40,825 nt of DNA from sequence record MT711525.1. The stretch is one strand, 5' to 3'. This document shows, in pieces, positions 1,263 through 40,825 of the stretch (its first letter is position 1; each line of letters starts with the position of its first letter). Source of the stretch: Escherichia phage vB_EcoS_fKuEco01. The translations under genes and the position numbers were made by a program. Below the pieces are notes generated by a model. It worked only from the letters and a program-made list of their open reading frames with translations. It had not been told where the DNA came from and ran no database searches.

Positions 1263-2756
1263 ATGGTTTCCGCAAACATTAACGCAGGGCAAGGGCAGAA
1301 CGTTAAAACCCGCCACCGCCAGTACGAAGAGTATTTCCCTAAGTGGCAGAAGGTGCGACATGCGCTTTCTGGCGACCTGACATCGTATCTACGTGACGTC
1401 AGTAAGAACGAGCCGGACCCGGTTTACGGTCGCCAGCGTCAGGCTGAATACGAAGCGGGGGCAATTTGCTACAACTTCACCAAGCGAACGCTTTCAGGCA
1501 TGGTCGGCAGCGTAATGCGCAAAGACCCCGAGATGATTATTCCGTCTCAGATGGAATACCTGACCACTAACTGTGACGGGTCGGGCGTTGGCCTGTGGCA
1601 GCACGCACAGGATACTCTGTATGAGATTGATGCTGTTGGTCGCGGTGGCTTGCTGGTTGACGCCCCCGCGGTAGAAGTAGCTACCATGGCAGAGCAAAAC
1701 GAGGGTTTACTAAATCCAACAATCGCTTTCTACACCGCAGAGAATATCATCAACTGGCGTCTCCAGCGCGTCGGGTCTGTTAATCGTGTGGTTATGGTTG
1801 TATTGCGTGAGGAATACGAGTACACCGATGGCGCGGATGAGTTCAGCCCCAACTACGGCGAGCAATACCGCGTCCTTGATATTTTCGAAGGCCAGTATCG
1901 CCAGCGTCTGTACCGCTTTAACCAGAAAGGTGCACTGATGGAAGGTGGCTATATCGAAATATTCCCGAAACTCGGTAATATTCCGGTCGGGGTGATTCCG
2001 TTCACGTTCATCGGCGCGGGAAATAACGACTCAACCCCTGACGATGCACCTTTGCTGCCGTTGGCTGAACTTAATATCGGGCACTTCCGCAACAGCGCGG
2101 ACAATGAGGAGTCCAGCTTCGTCGTAGGCCAGCCTACTCTGTTCATCGCCCCCGGTGAGAACATGAGCATGGGACAATGGAAAGAAGCCAACCCTCACGG
2201 AGTGCGTATGGGGTCACGTTCTGGCCATAACATCGGTTACGGCGGCAATGCGTTTCTGGTCCAGGCCAGTGAGAACAACCTAGCCAAGCAGAACATGTTG
2301 GATAAAGAGAACCAGGCAATCCAGATTGGTGCACAGCTTATTACCCCGACGCAGCAAATCACCGCGGAATCGGCACGCCTGCAACGCGGCGCTGATACGT
2401 CCGTTATGGCAACAATCGCACGTAACGTAAGCATGGCGTATACCGATGCGTTGCGCTGGGTCGCGGGTATGCTTGGGATTAGCGACAGCACTGAAATTGA
2501 GTTCAAACTGAACATGGAGTTCTTCCTGCAACCAATGACCGCTCAGGACCGCGCGCAGTGGATGGCGGATATTAACGCGGGCCTGTTACCGGCTACCGCT
2601 TACTATGCTGCGTTGCGTAAGGCGGGGGTAACTGACTGGACAGACGAGGACATTCAGAACGCTATCGAGGATGCGCCTCTGCCATTAGGTGCTGTTGCTC
2701 AGGTGGCTGGGGAGATTCCGCAGTCGGCGCAGCAAAAAGACCCCACCCAGCAGTAA
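1263..2756 (+). CDS. portal protein
   Basis: 497-aa ORF directly after terL with AAGAGG ribosome-binding site; size and position typical of portal. Confidence 0.75.
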   Translation: MVSANINAGQGQNVKTRHRQYEEYFPKWQKVRHALSGDLTSYLRDVSKNEPDPVYGRQRQAEYEAGAICYNFTKRTLSGMVGSVMRKDPEMIIPSQMEYLTTNCDGSGVGLWQHAQDTLYEIDAVGRGGLLVDAPAVEVATMAEQNEGLLNPTIAFYTAENIINWRLQRVGSVNRVVMVVLREEYEYTDGADEFSPNYGEQYRVLDIFEGQYRQRLYRFNQKGALMEGGYIEIFPKLGNIPVGVIPFTFIGAGNNDSTPDDAPLLPLAELNIGHFRNSADNEESSFVVGQPTLFIAPGENMSMGQWKEANPHGVRMGSRSGHNIGYGGNAFLVQASENNLAKQNMLDKENQAIQIGAQLITPTQQITAESARLQRGADTSVMATIARNVSMAYTDALRWVAGMLGISDSTEIEFKLNMEFFLQPMTAQDRAQWMADINAGLLPATAYYAALRKAGVTDWTDEDIQNAIEDAPLPLGAVAQVAGEIPQSAQQKDPTQQ

Positions 2757-2766
2757 GTTCACATAT

Positions 2767-2788
2767 AGCCCCGAAAGGGGCTTTCTTA
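2767..2788 (+). terminator. GC-rich hairpin (GCCCC-GAAA-GGGGC) with U-rich tail after portal
   Basis: agccccgaaaggggct followed by ttcttat; same hairpin sequence recurs at 4335-4356. Confidence 0.5.
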
Positions 2789-2792
2789 TAGT

Positions 2793-3869
2793 ATGCTATT
2801 AACTTTAGCGCCACAGGGTTTATCTATGAGCTTACTTACATCACTAATCAGCCACCAGATATGGCTGCAACGCACCGCATCCGGTGAGGTGAAAGACCTC
2901 GCGCCGTTCATTAAGGAGATGCGGGACGAAATCAAACGGCAGGTGCTGCTATTCGGCGACGACGGTCGCAGCACTGCGCGACTGAATAAACTGTTACGTG
3001 ACCTTGAAGAAGTACTGACAGGACTTACTGGTGACTGGCAAACAAAGCTGGCAGAAGACCTCAAGGAACTGGCGGTGTATGAAGCTGAGTGGAACGTAAA
3101 GACCCTGTCCGCCAACGTAGATGCGGAATTTGTTACGCCCACCGCCGAACAGGTGTGGGCCGCTGCTGAGTTTCAGCCATTATCATTGAGTGGCAAGCCA
3201 GTTGATTTCACTAAACTGATGTCAGGTTGGGGTGAAACGGAAGTAGCACGTCTTGTAACCGGCGTTAAGATGGGCTTTGTACAAGGTCAAACAACACGGC
3301 AGATTGTTAAGAATGTAGTAGGCGCCGGTGGGCTGGCTGACATCTCTGAGCGTAACGCCGCTACCGTCATCCGCACCGCGCTGTCTCACGTGTCCAACGA
3401 AGCCCGTAACGAGACGTACCGCCAGAACGACGACATCATCGAGAAGTACGAGTGGGTGTCAACGCTTGACAGCCGCACCAGTACGATTTGCAGGGTAAGA
3501 GACGGGATGACGTGGGAAATTGGTAAGGGGCCGATGCCCCCTGCCCATCCGAACTGCCGGTCGTGCACGGCTCCGGTAATCAGTTCCGAGTTCGACTTCC
3601 TCGATAAAGGCGCAAAACGCGCGGCTAAAGGCGCGGAAGGTGGCACTCAGGTAAGCGTAGACACCACTTACTACGAGTTCCTTAAACAACAACCGGCGTG
3701 GTTTCAGGACCAGGCGCTCGGCCCGGTGCGAGGTAAGATTTTCCGTAACAGCGGTATACCGCCGGAAGAGTTTCGCGTAATATCTGTAGATGGTTTCGGG
3801 AATCCGCTCACGCTTAAGCAGATGGCGGAACTCGATAAACGTGTTGCTGATTATCTGAAAGGGGAATAA
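2793..3869 (+). CDS. head morphogenesis protein (Mu gpF / SPP1 gp7-like)
   Basis: 358-aa ORF; C-terminal AHPNCRSCT motif typical of the Mu-F family; alternative in-frame start at 2826. Confidence 0.7.
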   Translation: MLLTLAPQGLSMSLLTSLISHQIWLQRTASGEVKDLAPFIKEMRDEIKRQVLLFGDDGRSTARLNKLLRDLEEVLTGLTGDWQTKLAEDLKELAVYEAEWNVKTLSANVDAEFVTPTAEQVWAAAEFQPLSLSGKPVDFTKLMSGWGETEVARLVTGVKMGFVQGQTTRQIVKNVVGAGGLADISERNAATVIRTALSHVSNEARNETYRQNDDIIEKYEWVSTLDSRTSTICRVRDGMTWEIGKGPMPPAHPNCRSCTAPVISSEFDFLDKGAKRAAKGAEGGTQVSVDTTYYEFLKQQPAWFQDQALGPVRGKIFRNSGIPPEEFRVISVDGFGNPLTLKQMAELDKRVADYLKGE

Positions 3870-4330
3870 TGATGGGCTTTTTCAAAGTAACTGACGTACC
3901 GTCTCGTCGCGTAGTCCAGTACGCCCGCGTGTCTGGCTCTGGCGAGAACGTGGTGTTTATTGAAGACGAAAGTGTACTCGGAACACCAGTGGACGATATG
4001 CCGTTTGCGGACAAGACCGGTATTGCGCTGCCAGCGGCAGGTATGCTTTATGAGATTCAGTACCTGGCGGATGCTGGTGATGTGTATTTCTCCGTACAAC
4101 CGCAGGACGCTGAACTGGCAGACGGCAGCGCAAATATCGCTGTCGAAGTTAAGGCGGGCAAAGCACCATATGCGCTGACCTGGTACAAAGACGGGAAGGA
4201 AGTGGTAAACGCCCCGGAAGAGGCTCTGTCTCTGACGGTTAACGCAGTTGGTGAATACTTCGTTAAAGTCACTGATGCCGACGGTATAGAGGCCGTAAGT
4301 AAAGCAGCGAAGGTTACTAAGCCAGAATAA
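3869..4330 (+). CDS. hypothetical virion-associated protein, possible Ig-like domain
   Basis: 153-aa ORF, start overlaps upstream stop (TAATG); beta-rich C-terminal segment. Confidence 0.45.
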   Translation: MMGFFKVTDVPSRRVVQYARVSGSGENVVFIEDESVLGTPVDDMPFADKTGIALPAAGMLYEIQYLADAGDVYFSVQPQDAELADGSANIAVEVKAGKAPYALTWYKDGKEVVNAPEEALSLTVNAVGEYFVKVTDADGIEAVSKAAKVTKPE

Positions 4331-4334
4331 ACTG

Positions 4335-4356
4335 AAGCCCCGAAAGGGGCTTTTTA
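4335..4356 (+). terminator. rho-independent terminator
   Basis: agccccgaaaggggc hairpin followed by TTTTT. Confidence 0.7.
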
Positions 4357-4405
4357 GTGCCTGTGATTATTCCAGTTATTCCACTCAATTGTAAATGTTG
4401 GAATA

Positions 4406-4421
4406 AACTATTCGAATAGTT
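4406..4421. promoter_or_regulatory. perfect 16-bp palindrome AACTATTCGAATAGTT (operator-like), overlapping the -35 of the downstream promoter
   Basis: exact reverse-complement symmetry read from the sequence; flanked by TTATTCC/GGAATAA repeats at 4367-4406. Confidence 0.55.
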
Positions 4422-4448
4422 GACTTTTCACCAAAAATGTGCTAAGCT
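4420..4448 (+). promoter_or_regulatory. sigma70-type promoter (TTGACT-17 bp-TGcTAAGCT)
   Basis: -35 TTGACT at 4420-4425, 17-bp spacer, extended -10 TGc-TAAGCT at 4443-4448. Confidence 0.6.
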
Positions 4449-4451
4449 CCA

Positions 4452-4562
4452 CCTGAGCTTGTGAAGTATGAACAAGCGACCGCGGCGCGGGCAGGTAACG
4501 GAGCGGGACGTAAGTCCTGAGTGTAGTTACGCTGACGCGTTCGGAAGGGCCATACTCTATTG
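4452..4562 (+). ncRNA. conserved promoter-proximal RNA element, copy 1 (function unknown; candidate cis-acting leader or small RNA)
   Basis: two conserved blocks identical or near-identical to 34316-34428, separated by a divergent ~35-nt centre; 1-nt indel between copies breaks any shared reading frame. Confidence 0.5.
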
Positions 4563-4628
4563 CTTGTGTAAAAAGTAACTGGTTTACTGAGATTACGCCG
4601 TTTCTATGTTTAAATGATAAGGACTAGC

Positions 4629-4655
4629 GCCCCGCTTTAAGGCGGGGCTTTACTT
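4629..4655 (+). terminator. terminator-like hairpin (GCCCCGC-N6-GCGGGGC) with TTTACTT tail
   Basis: 7-bp GC stem followed by a U-rich tract, between the RNA element and Rz. Confidence 0.45.
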
Positions 4656-4672
4656 ATCGAGAAAGGGGAAAC

Positions 4673-5059
4673 ATGAATCTTAAAGCAACTGTCGTAGCGG
4701 GAGCATGTTTCATCATCCTGGCTTACGCACACGGCATCTACCAGTATCGCAGCGGCTGGAACGGAGGCCGGGCGAATCTCGTTTCGCAGCAACAGCAGAA
4801 AGCACAGGCTGAGTTAGCTAAGAAAACACAACGGCAGCAGCAGGATGAATCGAAGGCCGCCGCCGCTGATAACGAAGGCAAGACGAAATCAGAGGTAATC
4901 ACCCGTGAAGTCGTTAAGTACATTAAAACGCCTGGCCGCAGCGTGTGCACTTTTGACCCTGAGCGCGTGCAGCTCAAGTCCCGCGCCGTCGCAAACGCCA
5001 ATTCCATCCCCGGATACGACGATGATGCAGCCGCCGTGCAAACTGGCACTGCCAAGTAA
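4673..5059 (+). CDS. Rz: i-spanin (Rz-like)
   Basis: 128 aa; N-terminal transmembrane helix then a charged, Gln/Ala-rich periplasmic domain; overlaps Rz1 in the +1 frame. Confidence 0.6.
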   Translation: MNLKATVVAGACFIILAYAHGIYQYRSGWNGGRANLVSQQQQKAQAELAKKTQRQQQDESKAAAADNEGKTKSEVITREVVKYIKTPGRSVCTFDPERVQLKSRAVANANSIPGYDDDAAAVQTGTAK

Positions 5060-6867: not shown

Positions 6868-6892
6868 CAAAGGGGCTTCGGCCCCTTTTTAC
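6868..6892 (+). terminator. rho-independent terminator after capsid gene
   Basis: aaaggggcttcggcccc hairpin followed by TTTTT. Confidence 0.75.
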
Positions 6893-8615: not shown

Positions 8616-9028
8616 TGGGCTACTTTGAGGACTTAACAAAAGCGTTCGATGTTCCGCTGGTAGCCTTCGGAACCGCCAACGGCATCAAGGTCGCGCTTGA
8701 AAACATCGACGCGCCGACGTCAACCGATACGCCATATCTGGCAAGTTACATGTTACTGGCGGATACCGAGCAAGCAGATTTGTTCTTCACGGAACAACGC
8801 GCGGGTGTTTATCAGGTCGACATTAACTACGCATCGGTGAAAGGTAGCGCGCCAATCAATAAAATGGCAGACTTACTTAACACGGCATTCAAAGCAGGTA
8901 AGTCATTTTCTCGTAACGACATCTGCGCCGAGGTTCAATCGGTTAGCCTGGGGCCGCTGATTGTAGAAAACGGATGGGCCAAACGACCATTGTCAATTAA
9001 CTTTATTGCATTCACCAAGAGGCTGTGA
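8612..9028 (+). CDS. hypothetical tail protein (possible tail terminator)
   Basis: 138-aa ORF immediately upstream of the major tail protein. Confidence 0.45.
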   Translation: MMGYFEDLTKAFDVPLVAFGTANGIKVALENIDAPTSTDTPYLASYMLLADTEQADLFFTEQRAGVYQVDINYASVKGSAPINKMADLLNTAFKAGKSFSRNDICAEVQSVSLGPLIVENGWAKRPLSINFIAFTKRL

Positions 9029-10201: not shown

Positions 10202-10224
10202 AAGGCCCCGTTTGGGGCCTTTTT
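10202..10224. terminator. bidirectional terminator hairpin AAGGCCCC-GTTT-GGGGCCTT
   Basis: 8-bp GC stem with T-runs on both strands at a convergent gene junction; exact reverse complement recurs at 22728-22747. Confidence 0.7.
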
Positions 10225-33763: not shown

Positions 33764-33997
33764 CTAGCGTTGGGGTTTCTTTTGTCTACGCACCGCATTA
33801 ACCCACTCTCCTTCGCTACGGTAAAAACTGCAATCAAGGATATCCTCTATAGAAAATTTAACTATTTTAGTGGGTCCACAAAAGTTATAAGGGAAAAGTT
33901 CTACATAACACCCATCGTCGGTTATATTTGACGCAATCTTGAAATAATATTTAATGCTGCCGTCTTCGCGGAAGCTACAACCCATACGCCCAATCAT
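33764..33997 (-). CDS. hypothetical protein (AT-rich gene)
   Basis: 77-aa ORF with lower GC than its neighbours. Confidence 0.4.
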   Translation of the reverse strand: MIGRMGCSFREDGSIKYYFKIASNITDDGCYVELFPYNFCGPTKIVKFSIEDILDCSFYRSEGEWVNAVRRQKKPQR

Positions 33998-34176
33998 TTC
34001 ACGTTCTCCTTAATCCATGCTTCAACTTTATTACGGTCAAATGTTCCAGGCAAACGGCGACCCATAACCTTAATACAACAATCCGGGAATTTACCACTGC
34101 GTAACCAGTTATTAATTGTCTGACGTGTCACCCCAATACGCTCGGCTACTTCATTCTGGGTCATGTAATGTTGCAT
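33994..34176 (-). CDS. small HTH DNA-binding protein (AlpA/excisionase-like fold)
   Basis: ATG 34176 preceded by AGGAG; MTQNEVAERIGVTRQTINNW motif; track ORF extends to GTG 34248. Confidence 0.55.
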   Translation of the reverse strand: MQHYMTQNEVAERIGVTRQTINNWLRSGKFPDCCIKVMGRRLPGTFDRNKVEAWIKENVK

Positions 34177-34207
34177 TTTTAAATCTCCTGTTTGTTTGGT
34201 GAAGCCA

Positions 34208-34236
34208 AGTATAGGATAGCGGGAATGTAAAAGCAA
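34208..34236 (-). promoter_or_regulatory. promoter TTGCTT-17-TATACT for the HTH gene
   Basis: hexamers read on the minus strand; divergent from the promoter at 34284. Confidence 0.4.
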
Positions 34237-34283
34237 CCAAAACACCACACAAAGTTACTAAGATGCAAAAGATGCTACTGGTA

Positions 34284-34312
34284 TTGACTTTTACTGAGAA
34301 ATATGGTAAGCT
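34284..34312 (+). promoter_or_regulatory. sigma70-type promoter (TTGACT-17 bp-TGgTAAGCT)
   Basis: same architecture and -10 as the promoter at 4420-4448. Confidence 0.6.
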
Positions 34313-34315
34313 CGT

Positions 34316-34428
34316 CCTGAGCTTGTGAAGTATGAACAAGCGACCGCGGTGCGCGGCAGGCGAAACGAGCACGTCTCGACGTGTGGAGTGAGTCTCGCTG
34401 ACGCATTCGGAAGGGCCAAAGTCTATTG
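34316..34428 (+). ncRNA. conserved promoter-proximal RNA element, copy 2
   Basis: shares conserved 5' and 3' blocks with 4452-4562; central segment differs. Confidence 0.5.
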
Positions 34429-34499
34429 TAATTCCCGCCTAATTATCTAAGTTACTGATTTGCCGTAGGTTAGAACCGCCAGCTCACTCACTCACTCTT

Positions 34500-34530
34500 G
34501 GTGCCTTCGGCACCACGTTCGTTTCGTTTC
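34500..34530 (+). terminator. terminator-like hairpin GGTGCC-UUCG-GCACC with U-rich tail
   Basis: tetraloop hairpin followed by acgttcgtttcgtttcg. Confidence 0.4.
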
Positions 34531-34581
34531 GCTCGCTACCCCCTTAAACGAAAGAATCACAACGGCAACGTAACTAATCTC

Positions 34582-34610
34582 TTGCACACCCCAACATAAT
34601 AGGATACTAT
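34582..34610 (+). promoter_or_regulatory. early-type promoter TTGCAC-17-TACTAT with conserved leader
   Basis: near-identical unit at 35875-35903 and, on the minus strand, 12652-12680. Confidence 0.55.
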
Positions 34611-34644
34611 TCACTTATCGAAACGAGACAGAGGAGTGAGGGTT

Positions 34645-34830
34645 ATGTTTAAACGTGGTCAGTTGGTTAAATGCGCCGACGATAAACACGGCATAATTGA
34701 ATTAAAATCTGCTTTATTTCCAGGAAAGTACGTAGTTACCGTGCAAAATGTGAGAGGAGTAAATTCACAAATATACGTAGCGGAGGAGAACTTAAAACTC
34801 ATCGGCAACAATTTTAAATTTAAAGGGTGA
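34645..34830 (+). CDS. hypothetical early protein (AT-rich)
   Basis: ATG 34645 after GAGGAG; track ORF starts at GTG 34636. Confidence 0.45.
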   Translation: MFKRGQLVKCADDKHGIIELKSALFPGKYVVTVQNVRGVNSQIYVAEENLKLIGNNFKFKG

Positions 34831-34834
34831 AGTG

Positions 34835-35035
34835 ATGGAAGAATTATTTGAAGAACTGAAACATCATGATTTCGAGGAAATATATTTCGTAGCTGAACGC
34901 TACGAGGTGCATCTGGCGGACGGTATAACGGTTATTACATCTACCAGCGAGCGAATGTTAAATAGCTTACGAGCAATACGAACGGCATCGAATCATGATG
35001 CTTGTGCCGACGACTCTGAGGGAGGTTGCCGTTAA
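34835..35035 (+). CDS. hypothetical early protein
   Basis: 66-aa ORF with RBS. Confidence 0.45.
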   Translation: MEELFEELKHHDFEEIYFVAERYEVHLADGITVITSTSERMLNSLRAIRTASNHDACADDSEGGCR

Positions 35036-35214
35036 TGCGAATCCGTATAACTGACCGCAGGCTTATCCGTATAACTGACCGCAGGCTTATAGATTTCTGT
35101 ATCTCGGTAGGTGATGTTTTTCCGGCGTTCAGCATCAACCATTATGGTTTTATGATTGAGTACAAAGGGTCGTTATTGTTCGTGTATCGGGATGAATGTG
35201 AGGTTCTGGTATGA
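35035..35214 (+). CDS. hypothetical protein containing an in-frame 24-bp tandem duplication
   Basis: ATG overlaps upstream stop (TAATG); repeat encodes IRITDRRL twice. Confidence 0.35.
   Translation: MRIRITDRRLIRITDRRLIDFCISVGDVFPAFSINHYGFMIEYKGSLLFVYRDECEVLV
35043..35090. repeat. exact 24-bp tandem duplication (CCGTATAACTGACCGCAGGCTTAT x2)
   Basis: two perfect adjacent copies read from the sequence. Confidence 0.9.
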
Positions 35215-35366
35215 GAGAAGCATTTGAACGGTGGGCTGTGGTCGAGGGTCTGCCGGTTAACAAGGGTTCAAAGAAAGAGTACCTGAACGTTAAGACGCGT
35301 CTCGCGTGGCGGGCGTGGAAAGCTGGTGTGCAATCCTTGATTGAAAGAGGTGTGAGGTATGGGTGA
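35211..35366 (+). CDS. hypothetical protein
   Basis: 51-aa ORF coupled to neighbours by overlapping stop/start. Confidence 0.35.
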   Translation: MREAFERWAVVEGLPVNKGSKKEYLNVKTRLAWRAWKAGVQSLIERGVRYG

Positions 35367-35559
35367 GTGGATTAAGTGTAGTGAGATGCTGCCGGGTAAT
35401 GGGTATACGGATAAAGAGTTCCTGGTGTATGAAACGTTAAATAACGCAGTTCAGCACGATTATTACATAGTTCCTGATGACGGGAGAAAGCCTTTCTGGA
35501 ATCACTACGATAAGTACGTGACGCACTGGATGCCGTTACCCGAGCCGCCAGAAGTGTGA
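35359..35559 (+). CDS. hypothetical protein (possibly DUF551-like)
   Basis: 66 aa; C-terminal HWMPLPEPP motif. Confidence 0.45.
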   Translation: MGEWIKCSEMLPGNGYTDKEFLVYETLNNAVQHDYYIVPDDGRKPFWNHYDKYVTHWMPLPEPPEV

Positions 35560-35693
35560 TGTTCAATAGTTTGGGATTTTACTGAGTGACTTACGCTGCT
35601 ACACAGCAGCGTACAACTTTAACTTAGTGTCGTCAAAAGGCGACACTTTCATCAAACGCAACAATCGAAGCGACTATTGCAGGAGATGCAACA

Positions 35694-35867
35694 ATGATTA
35701 CTAAAGAACAGGCTGAACGACTAATCACGTTAATCGACACGATGGTTGATGCTAAAACCGATTTAGCAACGGCGACAGAGGAATCCGCTACCTGGTCGCT
35801 TGAAGAAAGAGAAGCAGAAGCGGAAAGGGAGTTACTGGCGTTCATCGACTCTATAACACACCAATAA
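35694..35867 (+). CDS. hypothetical protein
   Basis: 57-aa ORF with AGGAG RBS; below the ORF-track cutoff. Confidence 0.4.
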   Translation: MITKEQAERLITLIDTMVDAKTDLATATEESATWSLEEREAEAERELLAFIDSITHQ

Positions 35868-35874
35868 AATTTAC

Positions 35875-35903
35875 TTGCACACTGGGATAGAATAGGCTAC
35901 TAT
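35875..35903 (+). promoter_or_regulatory. early-type promoter TTGCAC-17-TACTAT with conserved leader
   Basis: matches the unit at 34582-34610 including the AACGAGAGGAG leader. Confidence 0.55.
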
Positions 35904-35933
35904 TCATTTACACAAACGAGAGGAGAGACAGAG

Positions 35934-36071
35934 ATGGGCTGGTACGGTAGCTGTACTTTAGGCGAACTGTTAGATGCTTACGAAATAATGGGTAGCACTT
36001 CGGTGTGTGACGGCGACACTAAATCGCTGCTAGTCGGGGTGGATGAGAAAAGGGGTGAAGCTGATGAGTAA
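35934..36071 (+). CDS. hypothetical protein
   Basis: 45-aa ORF with GAGGAG RBS. Confidence 0.3.
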   Translation: MGWYGSCTLGELLDAYEIMGSTSVCDGDTKSLLVGVDEKRGEADE

Positions 36072-36609
36072 CAAAAACGAAATATTTGAGTACCTGATCG
36101 ACCAGCTACGGCAGCAGGTAAATAACAGCCGGAGCGAAGACCTGGCGCATGAGGTGCAGTCACTTAAGAATCAGTTACGTGATGCGTCGGCGCAGATTAA
36201 GGAGTTGCGGGAAGACAACATTAAGAAATCTGAGCACATATCGCACCTGACAGGGCAAGTTAAGGAGTTGCATCTGGCATTGGTCGAGGCTACTGGTGAC
36301 GTGGAGGCATACAAACTTATCCGCAAAGGTGCGTACGGTTCGGAGCAATCTGGTTGCCGAAAAGAAGATACGCAGGAATGTGACCACAATTGGATTATCG
36401 CTCCAGGATTGTTTATTGCCGAAGGCCACAAGGACAACGTGCCCGGTAGCCGGTTTTGCTGCGAATGCGGCAAGCGTGAGTGGGACGGACTTGAGTATGG
36501 GCCAACAGCCTGTACACGGGAGTGCAAACACAGTTTCTATTATGTAATAACAGATGGCTCCGCGCCGTTCGGTACGAAAGTATGTAAAACGTGCGGGGAA
36601 TACTTCTGA
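36064..36609 (+). CDS. coiled-coil protein with C-terminal Cys-rich zinc-ribbon-like region
   Basis: N-terminal heptad-rich half; C-terminal CDHNW, CCECG, CTRECKH and CKTCG cysteine groups. Confidence 0.5.
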   Translation: MSNKNEIFEYLIDQLRQQVNNSRSEDLAHEVQSLKNQLRDASAQIKELREDNIKKSEHISHLTGQVKELHLALVEATGDVEAYKLIRKGAYGSEQSGCRKEDTQECDHNWIIAPGLFIAEGHKDNVPGSRFCCECGKREWDGLEYGPTACTRECKHSFYYVITDGSAPFGTKVCKTCGEYF

Positions 36610-36812
36610 TGACCAGCATCTTATTTATCTGGGTACTGTCGGCGGGCCAGATGCAACTAGCGGCATCGGAAACGTTTTATTCGATGGAGGCGTGCCAGTC
36701 CGCGGCACGCGCCGCAGAGAACGCACACTTCCTGTTTCAGGGTGACAAGCCCAACGATTCAGAGGTACGCGCTATCTGCTCACCTAAGCGACTTGGGAAA
36801 CAGGAGAAGTGA
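36609..36812 (+). CDS. small secreted or membrane-anchored protein
   Basis: 67 aa with hydrophobic N-terminal signal-like segment and two Cys. Confidence 0.4.
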   Translation: MTSILFIWVLSAGQMQLAASETFYSMEACQSAARAAENAHFLFQGDKPNDSEVRAICSPKRLGKQEK

Positions 36813-36814
36813 TT

Positions 36815-37021
36815 ATGGTACAGAGATATGATTTAACAGAAGACTGCGTGAGTGGCACGGTAGATATAACGCCTGTCCCGGACTCGCATGAAGGGCGTTA
36901 TGTGGCCTACGAAGATTACGCGAAACTGGAGCGCAAACTGCGTGAGCTTGCTAAGCAGGTAGTAAACAGTCCGTGCGACTGGAAGACGGATGAATTGGCG
37001 CGCGAGATTCTCGGAATATGA
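36815..37021 (+). CDS. hypothetical protein
   Basis: ATG 36815 after CAGGAG. Confidence 0.45.
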   Translation: MVQRYDLTEDCVSGTVDITPVPDSHEGRYVAYEDYAKLERKLRELAKQVVNSPCDWKTDELAREILGI

Positions 37022-37311
37022 GCCTGGCAACTGACATCCTGAAACGAAGCGGCCTTGCGCCGCTGTCGCCGAGAGCTAAAACACAGATATACAAGCGCCG
37101 CCGTAACGCGCTGTACCCTGAGATTCAGGCCCGACGCAAAGCTATCCGCGCCTGTGGCTTCCAGAACGGGAAGGCCGTGAATCTCGGTGAGTTCAAAACA
37201 CAGGAACGTGCAGCTATAGCTAATCGGTTATTTAATTACTGGAAATCGCTTGGATACGATGATATTCCGACGAAACCACAGAGACGACAATACATCTGGA
37301 GACATAAATAA
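37018..37311 (+). CDS. hypothetical basic protein
   Basis: 97-aa ORF. Confidence 0.45.
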   Translation: MSLATDILKRSGLAPLSPRAKTQIYKRRRNALYPEIQARRKAIRACGFQNGKAVNLGEFKTQERAAIANRLFNYWKSLGYDDIPTKPQRRQYIWRHK

Positions 37312-37341
37312 ACCGTTATTAAGATAATTCCTAACCGTGCT

Positions 37342-37381
37342 ATCCTCCAGTTACTGCATACTTAATACGCACCTGGAGGAT
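37342..37381 (+). promoter_or_regulatory. RNA hairpin predicted to sequester the holin ribosome-binding site
   Basis: 9-bp inverted repeat ATCCTCCAG / CTGGAGGAT; right arm contains the GGAGGA Shine-Dalgarno of the TTG-start holin gene. Confidence 0.45.
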
Positions 37382-37386
37382 TCATC

Positions 37387-37695
37387 TTGGATAAATTTAC
37401 TGAAACAGTGACAGGCTGGCTTCTCGCTGCCGCACTAGCCGGAGGGGTTATCGGACTACGACAACATAAGTCCGTTATTTCCGGCCCTATCGACGGCTTC
37501 TGCTTCATTGCAACTGGCTTCACTTGCGCCGTATTTGGTGCGCCTCTCGCGGCTCAATGGTTCGGTATTACCGGTGAGCGCGAGATAGCTGGCCTTGGCT
37601 TCATCATCGCTATTCTCTGGATGCCTATCTATTCCCGTCTCTCCAGTATCGTCGCTGGAGAATACATCGCGCGTCGAGGAGGCACAGATGAATGA
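37387..37695 (+). CDS. holin-like membrane protein
   Basis: 102 aa with three hydrophobic segments; TTG start; directly upstream of second membrane protein and endolysin. Confidence 0.5.
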   Translation: MDKFTETVTGWLLAAALAGGVIGLRQHKSVISGPIDGFCFIATGFTCAVFGAPLAAQWFGITGEREIAGLGFIIAILWMPIYSRLSSIVAGEYIARRGGTDE

Positions 37696-37960
37696 GTTAT
37701 TCTGGTTCGGCGGTATGCTGGCAATCGGCGGCACATCGCTGTTTAATGTATACCCTCCGAGCGTGGATGACGGGCTGTTTGGTCGGGTGCTCTATATCCT
37801 GACTGCTATCGTCTGCGCTGCCGGATGTATCCACCTGTTACAGGGCAGCATGTCACCAACGCTGCCTGAGACATTAATCACATTAGTTGCGCTGCGCCAG
37901 ATTCGTCAGGCGTGGTTGTCATACGGAGGATATAAGCGTGTCTCGAAATATTTCAGATAA
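37688..37960 (+). CDS. second small membrane protein of the lysis cassette (holin or antiholin candidate)
   Basis: 90 aa, two hydrophobic segments; GAGGAGG RBS. Confidence 0.45.
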   Translation: MNELFWFGGMLAIGGTSLFNVYPPSVDDGLFGRVLYILTAIVCAAGCIHLLQGSMSPTLPETLITLVALRQIRQAWLSYGGYKRVSKYFR

Positions 37961-38426
37961 TGGATTGCATTTTACCGCTGCATTTGAGGGATTCCGCGGA
38001 ACTGCGTATCGTGCTACGCCGAACGAGAAGTACCTGACTATAGGCTATGGTCACTATGGGCCGGACGTAACACCCGGCAAGACCATCACCCCCGGACAAG
38101 GCCTCCTGTTACTGAATCGCGATATGGCTAAGGCCGTAGCTGCGGTCGATGCAGCAGCACACCATTCGCTGACACAGGCACAGTTCGACGCTGTGTGCGA
38201 CCTGGTCTATAACGCAGGTGCTGGTGTGATAGCAGCTACTACCGGAACCGGTAAGGCGCTGCGTTCGGGTGATATTACGACGCTGCGGGCTAAGCTGGCG
38301 CTGTTCATCAACCAGAACGGCAAACCGTTACTTGGCCTGCGTCGCCGTACCGCAGGACGTCTGGCATTGTTCGACGGTAAACCGTGGCAGGAGGCTGAGG
38401 CAATCGGGCGTGCGGTGAAAGGTTGA
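37938..38426 (+). CDS. endolysin, lysozyme (glycoside hydrolase family 24-like)
   Basis: resembles P22 gp19-type lysozymes as recalled; GTG start 37938 after GGAGGA; track ORF starts upstream at 37887. Confidence 0.75.
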   Translation: MSRNISDNGLHFTAAFEGFRGTAYRATPNEKYLTIGYGHYGPDVTPGKTITPGQGLLLLNRDMAKAVAAVDAAAHHSLTQAQFDAVCDLVYNAGAGVIAATTGTGKALRSGDITTLRAKLALFINQNGKPLLGLRRRTAGRLALFDGKPWQEAEAIGRAVKG

Positions 38427-38490
38427 CACCTAAGACCAATCAGACGATACTTAAATCACCTCCTGTTCCATCCCTCTGCTCTCCAGTTTT

Positions 38491-38522
38491 ATCCCGGCCC
38501 TGACCCAGCCGGGATTTTTTTT
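38491..38522 (+). terminator. strong rho-independent terminator after lysis cassette
   Basis: ATCCCGGC ... GCCGGGAT hairpin followed by eight T. Confidence 0.8.
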
Positions 38523-38544
38523 ATCTGTCTTCTGTAATGGCTAG

Positions 38545-38573
38545 TTGACTATTACCTTAGACCCTATTATATT
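38545..38573 (+). promoter_or_regulatory. sigma70 promoter TTGACT-17-TATATT
   Basis: near-consensus hexamers upstream of the ORF at 38607. Confidence 0.55.
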
Positions 38574-38606
38574 TACTCCATCGACAACGAGAACGGAGTA
38601 GAGAAA

Positions 38607-38756
38607 ATGAAAATCACAGACATCGAAGCATTCAAAGACGCACAACTGATGGCACGCATCGCCGTTAGTAACCTGAGCAACAGCATTCCAGCGGACGCGT
38701 TCTGGTTCGCTGCGATGCAGACACTTAAAGCAGCTTACGCAGGAGAGAAGAAATGA
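38607..38756 (+). CDS. hypothetical protein
   Basis: 49-aa ORF. Confidence 0.4.
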   Translation: MKITDIEAFKDAQLMARIAVSNLSNSIPADAFWFAAMQTLKAAYAGEKK

Positions 38757-38911
38757 GCGAGTCAGAAGGAAATATCACGACACCATCCGCCGGGAAGAAA
38801 GTCAACCGCACCCCGTTCCCGACACGAGAGGAACTGATGAAACGTAACAGTTTCCCTGGGCCGGACAAGAACAAGTATCTTAATCGCATGTGGGGAGAGC
38901 GTAAAGAATGA
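38753..38911 (+). CDS. hypothetical protein
   Basis: 52-aa ORF, overlapping ATGA junctions with both neighbours. Confidence 0.4.
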   Translation: MSESEGNITTPSAGKKVNRTPFPTREELMKRNSFPGPDKNKYLNRMWGERKE

Positions 38912-39093
38912 CTGACCGCGAATACGAAAAGATGATGGTAGAGGCTGTTAACGGCGGCGTAGACATCGGACACGTGATGCACGTCCTGAATACTAAAATC
39001 GCGGTAGCTGAGCAAATGGTTGAGTCGCTTTATGAGACGCGCCGTGAACTGATTAACCGCTTCAACCTGAACAAAGGTGACACCAATGCCTAA
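38908..39093 (+). CDS. hypothetical protein
   Basis: 61-aa ORF. Confidence 0.45.
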   Translation: MTDREYEKMMVEAVNGGVDIGHVMHVLNTKIAVAEQMVESLYETRRELINRFNLNKGDTNA

Positions 39094-39334
39094 AATCACA
39101 ATCGCATCGCTCGAGCGCCGTATTCTGGTGCTTGAGTCGGAGAAACAGACGTTAGGCGGGCAACTGTCAATTAACGGTGAGTACCAGTTAGCCGCATTTA
39201 AGGTTCTTCTCATGTTGTTGAGAGGAGAAGAGGAAAAGATGAACGCCTGCGAGCATGATTACCGCCTGCATTTAGTTGATGGGGTGCATCGAGCCACATG
39301 CTTAAAATGCGGTAAAGCGTATGAAAGCGCCTGA
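39086..39334 (+). CDS. hypothetical protein with Cys/His zinc-finger-like motif
   Basis: ATG 39086; CEHDY ... CLKCG motif; track start is GTG 39077. Confidence 0.45.
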   Translation: MPKITIASLERRILVLESEKQTLGGQLSINGEYQLAAFKVLLMLLRGEEEKMNACEHDYRLHLVDGVHRATCLKCGKAYESA

Positions 39335-39503
39335 ACCCGTAGTTATCGATGGCGTCCTGTGGAAACCATACTCGGTTAACCACATCGACGCCGACGGGAA
39401 GAAGTTCAGCTTCTACATTTTTGCAATTAGCCGTGAGCACGCCGCCTGTGTGGTCGATGATATACGAGAAACGGCGTGGCTCGGTGATGAGATAGTGGGG
39501 TGA
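39321..39503 (+). CDS. hypothetical protein
   Basis: 60-aa ORF. Confidence 0.45.
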   Translation: MKAPEPVVIDGVLWKPYSVNHIDADGKKFSFYIFAISREHAACVVDDIRETAWLGDEIVG

Positions 39504-39505
39504 AT

Positions 39506-39676
39506 ATGTTCAGTGACATCAACGCAGCAATCGAAGAGGCAATCTGGCGTCGTTACAACGGCGAGCAACAACGGCACTTTTGCCTGGTGCAACGCGGTAA
39601 CATGGTTGCCGTAGTGCAGGACCGCGATAACAAATATCCGAATGCGATGTGGACAACGAGGAATTTCTTAGGATGA
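39506..39676 (+). CDS. hypothetical protein
   Basis: 56-aa ORF. Confidence 0.35.
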   Translation: MFSDINAAIEEAIWRRYNGEQQRHFCLVQRGNMVAVVQDRDNKYPNAMWTTRNFLG

Positions 39677-39909
39677 TTACCAGCATTCCAAACCTGATTA
39701 AAGAATACGGCACGATGGCTGAGACATGCCGACAAACCGGCATCAACGAAATGACGGTTGCCAAGTACAGCAAAGACGTTAACTGCGAGCGCCATGTAAT
39801 TTATAACAATCGTCTGATGACGCACGTTAAGACAAGCCCGGTGTTATTCACGCGCAGGGGTATTACTAAAACAGAGCAACGTATTGCTAAAGAGGGGAGT
39901 GGGGAATGA
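39673..39909 (+). CDS. hypothetical protein
   Basis: ATG overlapping upstream stop; track ORF starts at GTG 39649. Confidence 0.45.
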   Translation: MITSIPNLIKEYGTMAETCRQTGINEMTVAKYSKDVNCERHVIYNNRLMTHVKTSPVLFTRRGITKTEQRIAKEGSGE

Positions 39910-40064
39910 TTAGTATTCTGGAGTTCATCGACAACCAAGTTTGGTACGAGCCAGAGTTAAATAAGTATTCAGTTAATGGGAAAATATTTCGGCGCAAAGG
40001 CCAGGCAGAGCGTTACGCAGCTAAACTATACCGTCAGCTTGTCAAGGATGGTTTCTTCAAATGA
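39906..40064 (+). CDS. hypothetical protein
   Basis: 52-aa ORF. Confidence 0.4.
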   Translation: MISILEFIDNQVWYEPELNKYSVNGKIFRRKGQAERYAAKLYRQLVKDGFFK

Positions 40065-40165
40065 GACTACTAATCATCCCTAACGCCCGGGCCATTCCCG
40101 TAGCTAACGACCATTACGGCGGCGACGGTAAAAGAGCACCACGCCACGGCCTATACAACTGATAC

Positions 40166-40188
40166 AAGCCCTCTACCGAGGGCTTTTC
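40166..40188 (+). terminator. terminator hairpin AAGCCCTC-TACC-GAGGGCTT with T-run
   Basis: 8-bp stem followed by TTTT. Confidence 0.6.
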
Positions 40189-40283
40189 TGTACATCCTGC
40201 CCAATCACCCTATATAATCCCTTTAGACGCGTAGGGCGCGTCTGGTGCGCTCTGATGGTCAGACGCATATGCAAGGGGATTAT

Positions 40284-40825
40284 ATGAAGCTGAAACTCAA
40301 GCAGCCATCGCCAGAGGTGATGCAAGCTGCACATGAAGAAGCTGTTAGCGCAAACCGCCGACGTAAACGACAGCGTGGGAAACAGAGCCTTTATCAATCG
40401 TCCCGTAATTCCGCCGCGTTGTGGGACCCGGACTATTGCGACGCGTTAATCGAGTTCTTCGACCGTACGTCGTGGGAACTTGTGCCTACGTCCAAGGGTG
40501 ACGAACGTCCGCTGATTCAGGATAAACCGCCGTCACTGGCCCGCTTCGCCTCACACATCGGCGTAACTATCCCGATTATTAAGCTGTGGCTGCGTGAGAT
40601 TCCCGCATTTGCAGAAGCCTATGAAACAGCACAGGCGCTGGAAGAGGCATATTTCACTGAGACAGGGGCCGCGGGCATCTCTGCTACGTTCGCCGCAGCT
40701 AAACTGGGCCTCGGTAAAGAGAAACCAGTCGAATCCACCGAAGAAACGGCACCGACTGAGATTATTTTTAGTGTTGCAGAGCCTGTAGGTAAAATTGTAA
40801 CAACGAATATGGGTGAGGTAGAGGA
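40284..40825 (+). CDS. terS: terminase small subunit (3'-truncated by window end)
   Basis: ORF open to the last base; helix-rich protein with HTH-like segment; immediately upstream of terL in the permuted map; alternative ATG at 40269. Confidence 0.5.
   Translation, partial: MKLKLKQPSPEVMQAAHEEAVSANRRRKRQRGKQSLYQSSRNSAALWDPDYCDALIEFFDRTSWELVPTSKGDERPLIQDKPPSLARFASHIGVTIPIIKLWLREIPAFAEAYETAQALEEAYFTETGAAGISATFAAAKLGLGKEKPVESTEETAPTEIIFSVAEPVGKIVTTNMGEVE

Follow-up and report, generated by a model that had tools for sequence, protein, structure and literature searches.

Genomic setting of the two leaders

The window, the whole 40,825-nt stretch of DNA analysed here, is a Kagunavirus (Guernseyvirinae) genome that carries two copies of a leader element on its + strand. 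Around the first copy, window positions 4300–4700 match about 170 phage records at 96–100% identity, the best being Escherichia phage vB_EcoS-UTI89UKE1; these records are mainly named Escherichia or Salmonella phages, together with 11 Kagunavirus, and those whose taxonomy was fetched all belong to Guernseyvirinae. In the records of relatives, the copy-1 element lies between a Hoc-like/fibritin gene and an Rz-like spanin gene, where it is either unannotated or overlain by small "hypothetical protein" calls. The first gene downstream of it in the window is the i-spanin gene (4673–5059), annotated in relatives as an Rz-like spanin, which is led by the Shine-Dalgarno sequence AAAGGGG and its ATG at 4662–4675 on the + strand. 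The copy-1 (late) promoter leads into the spanin, scaffold, capsid and connector genes. The copy-2 (early) promoter diverges from an HTH gene on the − strand (33994–34248) and leads into about a dozen small ORFs without assigned function, followed by holin and endolysin genes (37387–38426).

Canonical terminators follow the portal gene (2767–2782), the capsid gene (6871–6888, continued by UUUUUAC) and the endolysin gene (38494–38512). Additionally, G+C-rich canonical hairpins are found after the Hoc-like gene (4335–4352) and at an operon end (10202–10221), and two TTGACA/TTGACT promoters of the ordinary type, at 38423 and 38545, restart transcription past the endolysin terminator. A PHROGs search of the 20 ORFs of the rightward operon (33764–40788) returned neither a Q-like nor an N-like protein.

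The two elements follow promoters of one type. Specifically, the pattern TTGACTTTT-N6-AAAT-N-TG-N-TAAGCT occurs at only two places in the window, 4420–4448 and 34284–34312, both on the + strand, and the 29-nt form TTGACTTTTNNNNNNAAATNTGNTAAGCT gave no match in 100 shuffles with up to 3 mismatches allowed. In the late promoter, the −35 hexamer TTGACT (4420–4425) and the −10 hexamer TAAGCT (4443–4448) are separated by a 17-bp spacer, which contains a TG at 4440–4441. Among the variants this TG, at −15/−14, is invariant and position −13 varies. The −10 hexamer agrees with TATAAT at three of six positions but keeps −12T, −11A and −7T, which together with the invariant TG argues that the promoters of both copies are of the extended −10 (TGn) sigma-70 type. 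The promoter called in the first-pass annotation therefore stands, whereas its description as near-consensus sigma70 does not, as TAAGCT is far from consensus and a sigma-70 scan leaves the site unlisted. From the usual spacing, transcripts are predicted to start at about G4455 and G34319, 2 nt before the first hairpin, and the element begins at about +2 relative to the predicted start at both promoters. The same promoter precedes every early copy found; three other + strand promoters of the window are without an element.

Just upstream of the late promoter (4367–4406) lie two direct TTATTCC repeats and one inverted copy (GGAATAA). The motif has 11 matches in the window, three of which cluster here, at 4367, 4376 and 4400 (− strand). 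Upstream of the late leaders of SLMP1 and L059, which have diverged, the repeats persist; upstream of copy 2 they are absent. They are a likely candidate site for a DNA-binding regulator of late timing.

Two hairpins and a single-stranded tail make up the conserved element

Variants of the element were gathered from IMG/VR, phage records and metagenomes, and a covariance model (R1) built from 13 of them matches the window only at 4449–4569 (145 bits, E = 3e-40) and 34313–34435 (107.9 bits, E = 4e-29). The invariant 13-mer TTCGGAAGGGCCA likewise occurs exactly at two places, 4540–4552 and 34406–34418, and has four matches when up to 2 mismatches are allowed, against 0.81 expected. Both of the roughly 110-nt copies proposed in the first-pass annotation are thus recovered, with no others. 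The end that it had assigned to the first copy, at 4562, falls short, as the conserved leader runs on through further blocks to a long hairpin at 4616–4658.

In copy 1, the 5′-terminal hairpin HP1 (4457–4477, + strand) pairs GCUUGU with ACAAGC around the loop GAAGUAUGA. Its basal GCU/AGC is conserved, and its upper part is replaced by ACGCU-UUC-AGCGU in Jerseyviruses and by GUUC-UAC-GAAC in the L059 locus. The long hairpin HP2 (4480–4544, + strand) has an invariant base, CCG-C(bulge)-GGYGCG ... CGCRUU-CGG, which comprises a bulged C (C4483), two invariant tandem G·U pairs (G at 4484–4485) and one covarying pair. Further up, HP2 consists of a middle helix CAG-GUAAC/GUUAC-G-CUG, an internal loop GGAG/AGUGUA and an apical helix CGGGAC-GUAA-GUCCUG at 4504–4519. 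HP2 is followed by a single-stranded tail (4545–4562, + strand), in which AAGGGCCA is nearly invariant (one G-for-A and one U-for-C variant), the next three positions are free and the closing UCUAUUG is again nearly invariant. Copy 2 (34313–34435, + strand) has the same parts: HP1 at 34321–34341, HP2 at 34344–34410, the tail AAGGGCCA at 34411–34418 and UCUAUUG at 34422–34428.

In late leaders, the tail runs into GCUUGUG (4562–4568, + strand), a direct repeat of the HP1 5′ arm (4457–4463). This repeat, which follows the invariant UAUUG, covaries with its HP1 partner by lineage: both occurrences read GCUUGUG in Kagunavirus, GCUUUCAG in Jerseyvirus and CUUCG in L059. In the L001 locus the two occurrences lie at about 1482–1489 and about 1531–1538, and early copies are without the repeat. 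One possibility is an alternative helix that joins the HP1 3′ arm to the tail; another is that the repeat is the trace of an insertion or duplication.

The apical part of HP2 (4490–4533, + strand) is variable. At least five types of this centre exist, all of them helical, in which pairing is kept via compensatory changes, and most keep an internal loop (G)GAGC / GAGUG(U)AG. Centres are exchangeable between late and early copies: the early copies of L044 and L052 bear a late-type centre, and the late copy of Ec1-ASingh bears the centre of the L016 early copy. In the Salmonella phage SLMP1, the centre is absent and HP2 is closed by GGAC, a form that corresponds to that of fmb-p1 minus the 42 nt between ACGC repeats. 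The centre had been described as differing completely between the window copies and as a swapped module between two conserved blocks; it is rather the dispensable, exchangeable tip of one long hairpin, forming its apical half and keeping the internal-loop motif. Because the centre can be deleted, as in SLMP1, the functional core is predicted to be about 60 nt, comprising HP1, the HP2 base and the tail AAGGGCCA-NNN-UCUAUUG. The invariant nucleotides cluster at the HP2 base and its 3′ flank, and variation and deletion fall in the loops, the three free tail positions and the whole centre. This combination of an invariant base, bulge, G·U pairs and single strand with variable loops indicates, as judged from the alignments, a specific binding surface.

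Compensatory changes argue for a strand-specific RNA fold

RNAalifold, run on a plain MAFFT alignment of 13 variants, recovered HP1 and HP2 independently. With the proposed structure placed on this alignment, 91.9% of the cells are paired, compared with 28–40% in slid controls; covariation scores 0.149 versus 0.068 in shuffles, none of 500 of which reach it. In a model-fitted alignment of 25 distinct sequences, which is biased towards structure so that the MAFFT figures are the conservative estimate, 95.3% of the cells are paired against 30–41% in slid controls, and double changes are found in 14 pairs against 5.6 in shuffles (again 0 of 500). The covarying pair of the HP2 base is C-G in 12 sequences, U-A in 10 and A-U in 2, and the two neighbouring G·U pairs are unchanged across sequences, which sets the functional strand as +. 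Support for HP1 comes mainly from its conserved GCU/AGC base and replaced upper part. Single-sequence minimum-free-energy (MFE) folds of the window copies have HP2 in common, with HP1 in the copy-2 fold only; their z-scores are unremarkable (−1.5 and −0.9), and folding is poorer on the minus strand. Both hairpins do form in the MET sequence and in the full leader folded from the predicted start. Taken together, these comparisons show that the element is a conserved, strand-specific, structured RNA at the predicted 5′ end of both transcripts. An RNA-level element is what the first-pass annotation had suspected, and the compensatory changes, the strand-specific fold and the position directly after the promoter in both copies bear this out.

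Several further features were considered and rejected. A P1 helix (CCU/AGG) proposed by RNAalifold would use a CCU that lies upstream of the predicted start and reads ACU in L016-type copies. The HP1 loop (AGUAUG) could pair with CAUACU of the tail as a pseudoknot, perfectly so in the late copy of the window, but the natural tails UAG, UAA and AAG break the pairing, and it is absent from early and Jerseyvirus copies. The tail hairpin seen in the MFE fold of the late leader is not conserved. As for coding, the ATG in the HP1 loop opens ORFs of 17–23 codons that are unlike between copies and absent in Jerseyviruses.

A long conserved hairpin in the late leader

The extended hairpin HP3 (4616–4658, + strand) has about 17 bp, with a core GCCCCGCU-UUAA-GGCGGGGC at 4629–4648 and a lower stem GAUAAG/CUUAUC. 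A terminator scan reports the hairpin at 4629–4648, and its tail, UUUACUUAUC, forms part of the conserved lower stem. In Jerseyviruses this tail is UUAGCGUAUA and pairs with a covarying upstream segment, giving a lower stem of UAUACG/CGUAUA in place of GAUAAG/CUUAUC. Compensatory changes are found in both the upper and lower stems in SLMP1 and MET, and the L016 form is a perfect 18-bp palindrome. Since the lower stem covaries and the Jerseyvirus tail is UUAGCGUAUA, selection appears to act on a helix of 17–18 bp, not on a U-tract. The terminator annotated at 4629–4655 is therefore retained as a hairpin pattern, which the scan detects, but is weakened as a terminator: its U-tract is unconserved, and the hairpin is the top of a longer conserved helix. 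HP3 could be an RNase III-type processing site adjoining the spanin ribosome-binding site.

The copy-2 leader contains a hairpin of its own, UGGUGCC-UUC-GGCACCA (34499–34515, + strand), which is weakly terminator-like with a poor U-tract, CGUUCGUUUC. Just before it, at 34483–34497, lies a (CTCA)n microrepeat, CTCACTCACTCACTC.

Distribution of the element

BLAST places the element at 244 sites in 202 records, and a second copy is present in about one fifth of Guernseyvirinae genomes. R1 detects a single (late) copy in the SLMP1 genome and weak homologues, at 19 bits, on L059 and L061. With filters off, it finds no third copy in the window or in the SLMP1 rightward leader and no match in 70 more distant loci with capsid identities of 55–86%. 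As a second copy occurs in only about one fifth of the genomes and none lies at the SLMP1 rightward promoter, one site per operon is no general rule. No element-like sequence was found in 5,426 E. coli genomes, and the sole match among 185,579 species genomes (GTDB) is a phage contig filed under a Bacillota MAG. This 6.2-kb contig, JAEWLW010000073.1, carries a complete early-type element at 2130–2252 (99.7 bits) and is almost certainly a mis-binned Kagunavirus contig. With no match in E. coli and the only GTDB match mis-binned, a bacterial or prophage origin was rejected. The motif GUCUAUU was also dropped as a wider signature, as it is too short and chance explains most of its matches.

Between the window and the Jerseyvirus Salmonella phage ER10, positions 4401–4700 are 96–98% identical, compared with 83–92% for the upstream genes and 45–80% for the downstream genes, so that nothing else in the morphogenesis region compared is as well conserved as the leader. 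The L058 locus, whose capsid is 94% identical, has another late leader with a very stable fold (z −4.4); this leader, at about 985–1120, comprises a 5′ hairpin, a long hairpin capped by GUAA and a tail that is degenerate, AUCGGGGAUAGUCUAUUC. The module can be replaced.

In SLMP1, about 1.1 kb of leader without ORFs (2229–3359, − strand) lies behind the rightward promoter. Several hairpins and an approximately 34-nt tandem duplication (GGUGGAUAAUUCCUGGGGUAUCGUGGUGGCGGG) are present in it, and it has only the block UAUCUGAA...GCCGUAGAUU in common with the copy-2 leader of the window. Record OR594183.1 (vB_EcoM_SHAK7858) is filed as Autographiviridae/Kayfunavirus yet has a Guernseyvirinae early promoter and element, so its taxonomy or name looks wrong, and the 164-kb record PP935706.1, with three places, may be a chimeric assembly. 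The Guernseyvirinae literature contains no description of the element, and its published promoter and terminator lists are predictions only.

Comparison with known leader RNAs

A search of the whole window against Rfam 15 gave no match at the gathering threshold, the best sub-threshold hit reaching 16 bits (E ~1). This agrees with the earlier statement that the sequence was not recognised as a known RNA family. The lack of a match at both gathering and E-value thresholds led us to reject curated ribozymes, riboswitches and phage sRNAs as candidates. In a control, Rfam also finds nothing in the put region of phage HK022, as it holds no put family, so its silence is uninformative about put. We located putL and putR in HK022, with putL numbering in agreement with the cryo-EM paper (PMC9378689). 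In that paper putL, about 70 nt long with two stems, begins at the PL start site and acts without protein. Homology to the put RNAs would show in features such as the stem II core (for example GGAUGA) and the stem I/II junction. R1 has no match in the HK022 genome at E values up to 10, and Smith-Waterman alignment of the element with putL or putR gives p ≥ 0.1, against a control score of 35 for putL versus putR (shuffles 13.6 ± 2.2).

The likeness to put is one of layout. Both appear to be promoter-proximal, two-stem nascent RNAs with bulges and non-Watson–Crick pairs; both occur up to twice per genome with terminators downstream, in phages without an identifiable N- or Q-type protein. The element has two stem-loops after its predicted start and a minimal natural form of about 60 nt (SLMP1), but its stem proportions are unlike those of put, its HP1 is short and shows nothing of the triplex found in put stem I, and its conserved single-stranded 3′ tail is without a put counterpart. 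A put RNA is defined by cis-acting read-through of terminators that requires no phage protein and is lost on mutation of the β′ zinc-binding domain. Additionally, put belongs to lambdoid temperate phages, whereas the element belongs to virulent siphoviruses and is mostly present in one copy per genome. The put-type resemblance noted in the first-pass annotation therefore holds as an analogy of layout and fails as sequence homology. Its alternative comparison, with lambda PR′-qut-tR′, finds no support, as the 20 rightward-operon ORFs include no Q-like protein and the conserved features are covarying RNA helices.

In the lambda nutL/N-leader, PL is followed by boxA and boxB, an RNase III hairpin and the ribosome-binding site of N. 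The late leader is laid out alike, with a promoter, an RNA element and a long hairpin before the first ribosome-binding site, in a leader of about 220 nt. Unlike lambda nut, the element has no 15-nt boxB-type hairpin, its apical loops vary and an N-like protein was not found among the ORFs searched. A boxA (CGCUCUUA-like) match is absent from both window copies, in which ACUCUAUUG or GUCUAUUG comes closest, as does GCUCUAUUG in Jerseyviruses. The ompA 5′ UTR and the T7 gene 10 leader share with the element a hairpin about 2 nt from the 5′ end (here a predicted one), ahead of highly expressed structural genes. These stabilisers act by structure alone, whereas the element has long invariant sequences, a bulge and G·U pairs.

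Possible functions of the leader

The element represents an undescribed RNA family that is limited to Guernseyvirinae, and it probably acts on the downstream behaviour of the host RNA polymerase or the mRNA. By analogy with the systems above, we tentatively propose that it is a promoter-proximal, cis-acting RNA that modifies elongation in a put- or nut-like manner, an account that we regard as plausible but short of probable. The core would serve as a recognition surface, acting in cis on the elongation complex that has just transcribed it; in a put-like version the RNA would bind RNA polymerase directly, and in a nut-like version it would assemble factors on the polymerase. The leader hairpin would then not stop the modified polymerase, and neither would the strong terminators of the rightward lysis and morphogenesis units, such as that at 6871–6888, and HP3 might later serve as a processing or stability site, as in the lambda PL–nutL–RNase III hairpin–N leader. 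Action on the elongation complex is favoured by the position of the element at the start of transcripts from two dedicated promoters, and the canonical terminators inside the downstream units count for read-through. As no Q- or N-like protein was found in the rightward operon, a factor-independent or host-factor mechanism is weakly favoured. Against action on elongation stand the lack of similarity to put, a leader hairpin whose terminator character is unconserved, the presence of a second copy in only about one fifth of the genomes and the three + strand promoters without an element. A more specific version, that the element is a second class of nascent RNA, unrelated to put in sequence, which binds E. 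coli/Salmonella RNA polymerase directly and confers resistance to terminators and pauses, seems to us rather doubtful as it stands; it would imply that virulent Guernseyvirinae rely on unmodified host polymerase for their lysis and capsid operons and dispense with a phage antiterminator protein.

The 5′-terminal hairpin fits an mRNA stabiliser equally well, which also counts against action on elongation. The leader could be a stabilising 5′ UTR for high expression, in which HP1 and HP2 shield the 5′ end from RppH and RNase E, HP3 serves for stability or RNase III cleavage and the Shine-Dalgarno-like AAGGG is a ribosome stand-by or stabiliser site, in the manner of the ompA 5′ hairpin, the T7 gene 10 leader or Bacillus STAB-SD. 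In every lineage HP1 begins 0–2 nt from the predicted start, the genes behind the leader are those of the scaffold and capsid operon, AAGGG is similar to AAAGGGG, the Shine-Dalgarno sequence of the phage itself, and HP3 provides a conserved helix of 17–18 bp adjoining the ribosome-binding site; the different but equally structured leader of L058 also points to a generic structural role. Such hairpins, however, need no set sequence, yet at least 13 nt are invariant in all forms of the element in addition to the bulge and G·U pairs. The Shine-Dalgarno-like tract is followed by no conserved start codon or ORF, and the mini-ORFs are unlike between copies. We consider this account unlikely, though a serious rival that explains part of the data, and we grant the same standing to an operator RNA for a phage or host RNA-binding protein (a translational repressor, autoregulator or timing factor). 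Here the HP2 base and the AAGGGCCA tail would be the binding site, whose occupancy would set the translation or decay of the lysis and capsid mRNAs. An invariant bulge, tandem G·U pairs and a single-stranded purine tract typify protein recognition, and the GGA motifs in the tail and internal loop, being of the kind that suits CsrA-type binding, would fit such a protein. Both element-bearing units hold lysis genes (holin/endolysin at 37387–38426 and spanin at 4673), and a partner could hide among the rightward-operon ORFs, which are mostly without assigned function, but no candidate RNA-binding protein was found among the ORFs scanned. Moreover, the element lies about 110–220 nt upstream of the first ribosome-binding site without overlapping it, and the early and late centres differ within one genome, so that the centre is no shared specificity determinant.

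Two further accounts detach the element from the downstream message. An independent, trans-acting small RNA of about 200 nt, made up of the promoter, the element and HP3 as terminator and comparable to lambda 6S/oop or P4 CI RNA, is suggested by the spacing of about 200 nt from the promoter through the structured RNA to a terminator-pattern hairpin in copy 1 and by a hairpin at similar distance in copy 2. We think it very unlikely, as the U-tracts are weak and unconserved and the downstream genes lack another promoter. It also lacks a complementary phage target (with up to 2 mismatches on both strands, the tail 13-mer has near-matches only at 8666 on the + strand and 14878 on the − strand) and any similar sequence in E. 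coli genomes. Least probable of all is a DNA-level or R-loop role, either as an operator for the divergent HTH protein or as a transcription-primed replication origin that combines a promoter, a G-rich RNA and an AT-rich unwinding region, as in T4 oriF/oriG or ColE1 RNA II. Copy 2 does lie in a divergent low-GC region by a primase/helicase gene, at the cumulative GC skew minimum, and an AT-rich stretch follows the element; GC skew, however, follows gene orientation and is uninformative. The universal copy is the late one, which lies within the structural module at a place where the skew has no inflection. The centre is deletable, and G·U pairs with compensatory changes point to RNA folding from one strand.

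Implications

When phages of E. coli and Salmonella are isolated for therapy, K1G-, Jersey- and SETP3-like Guernseyvirinae are among the most frequent finds, and to our knowledge almost nothing is known about how they programme host RNA polymerase. For a leader that had been left unannotated or taken for small hypothetical proteins, a covariance model and clear mutational targets are now available. If the element does modify polymerase, put would cease to be the only phage RNA class of that kind, and a compact 60-nt part would be available for terminator-proof transcription units. Should the element turn out to be a protein operator or a stabiliser, it would still mark the control point of capsid and lysis gene expression in Guernseyvirinae.
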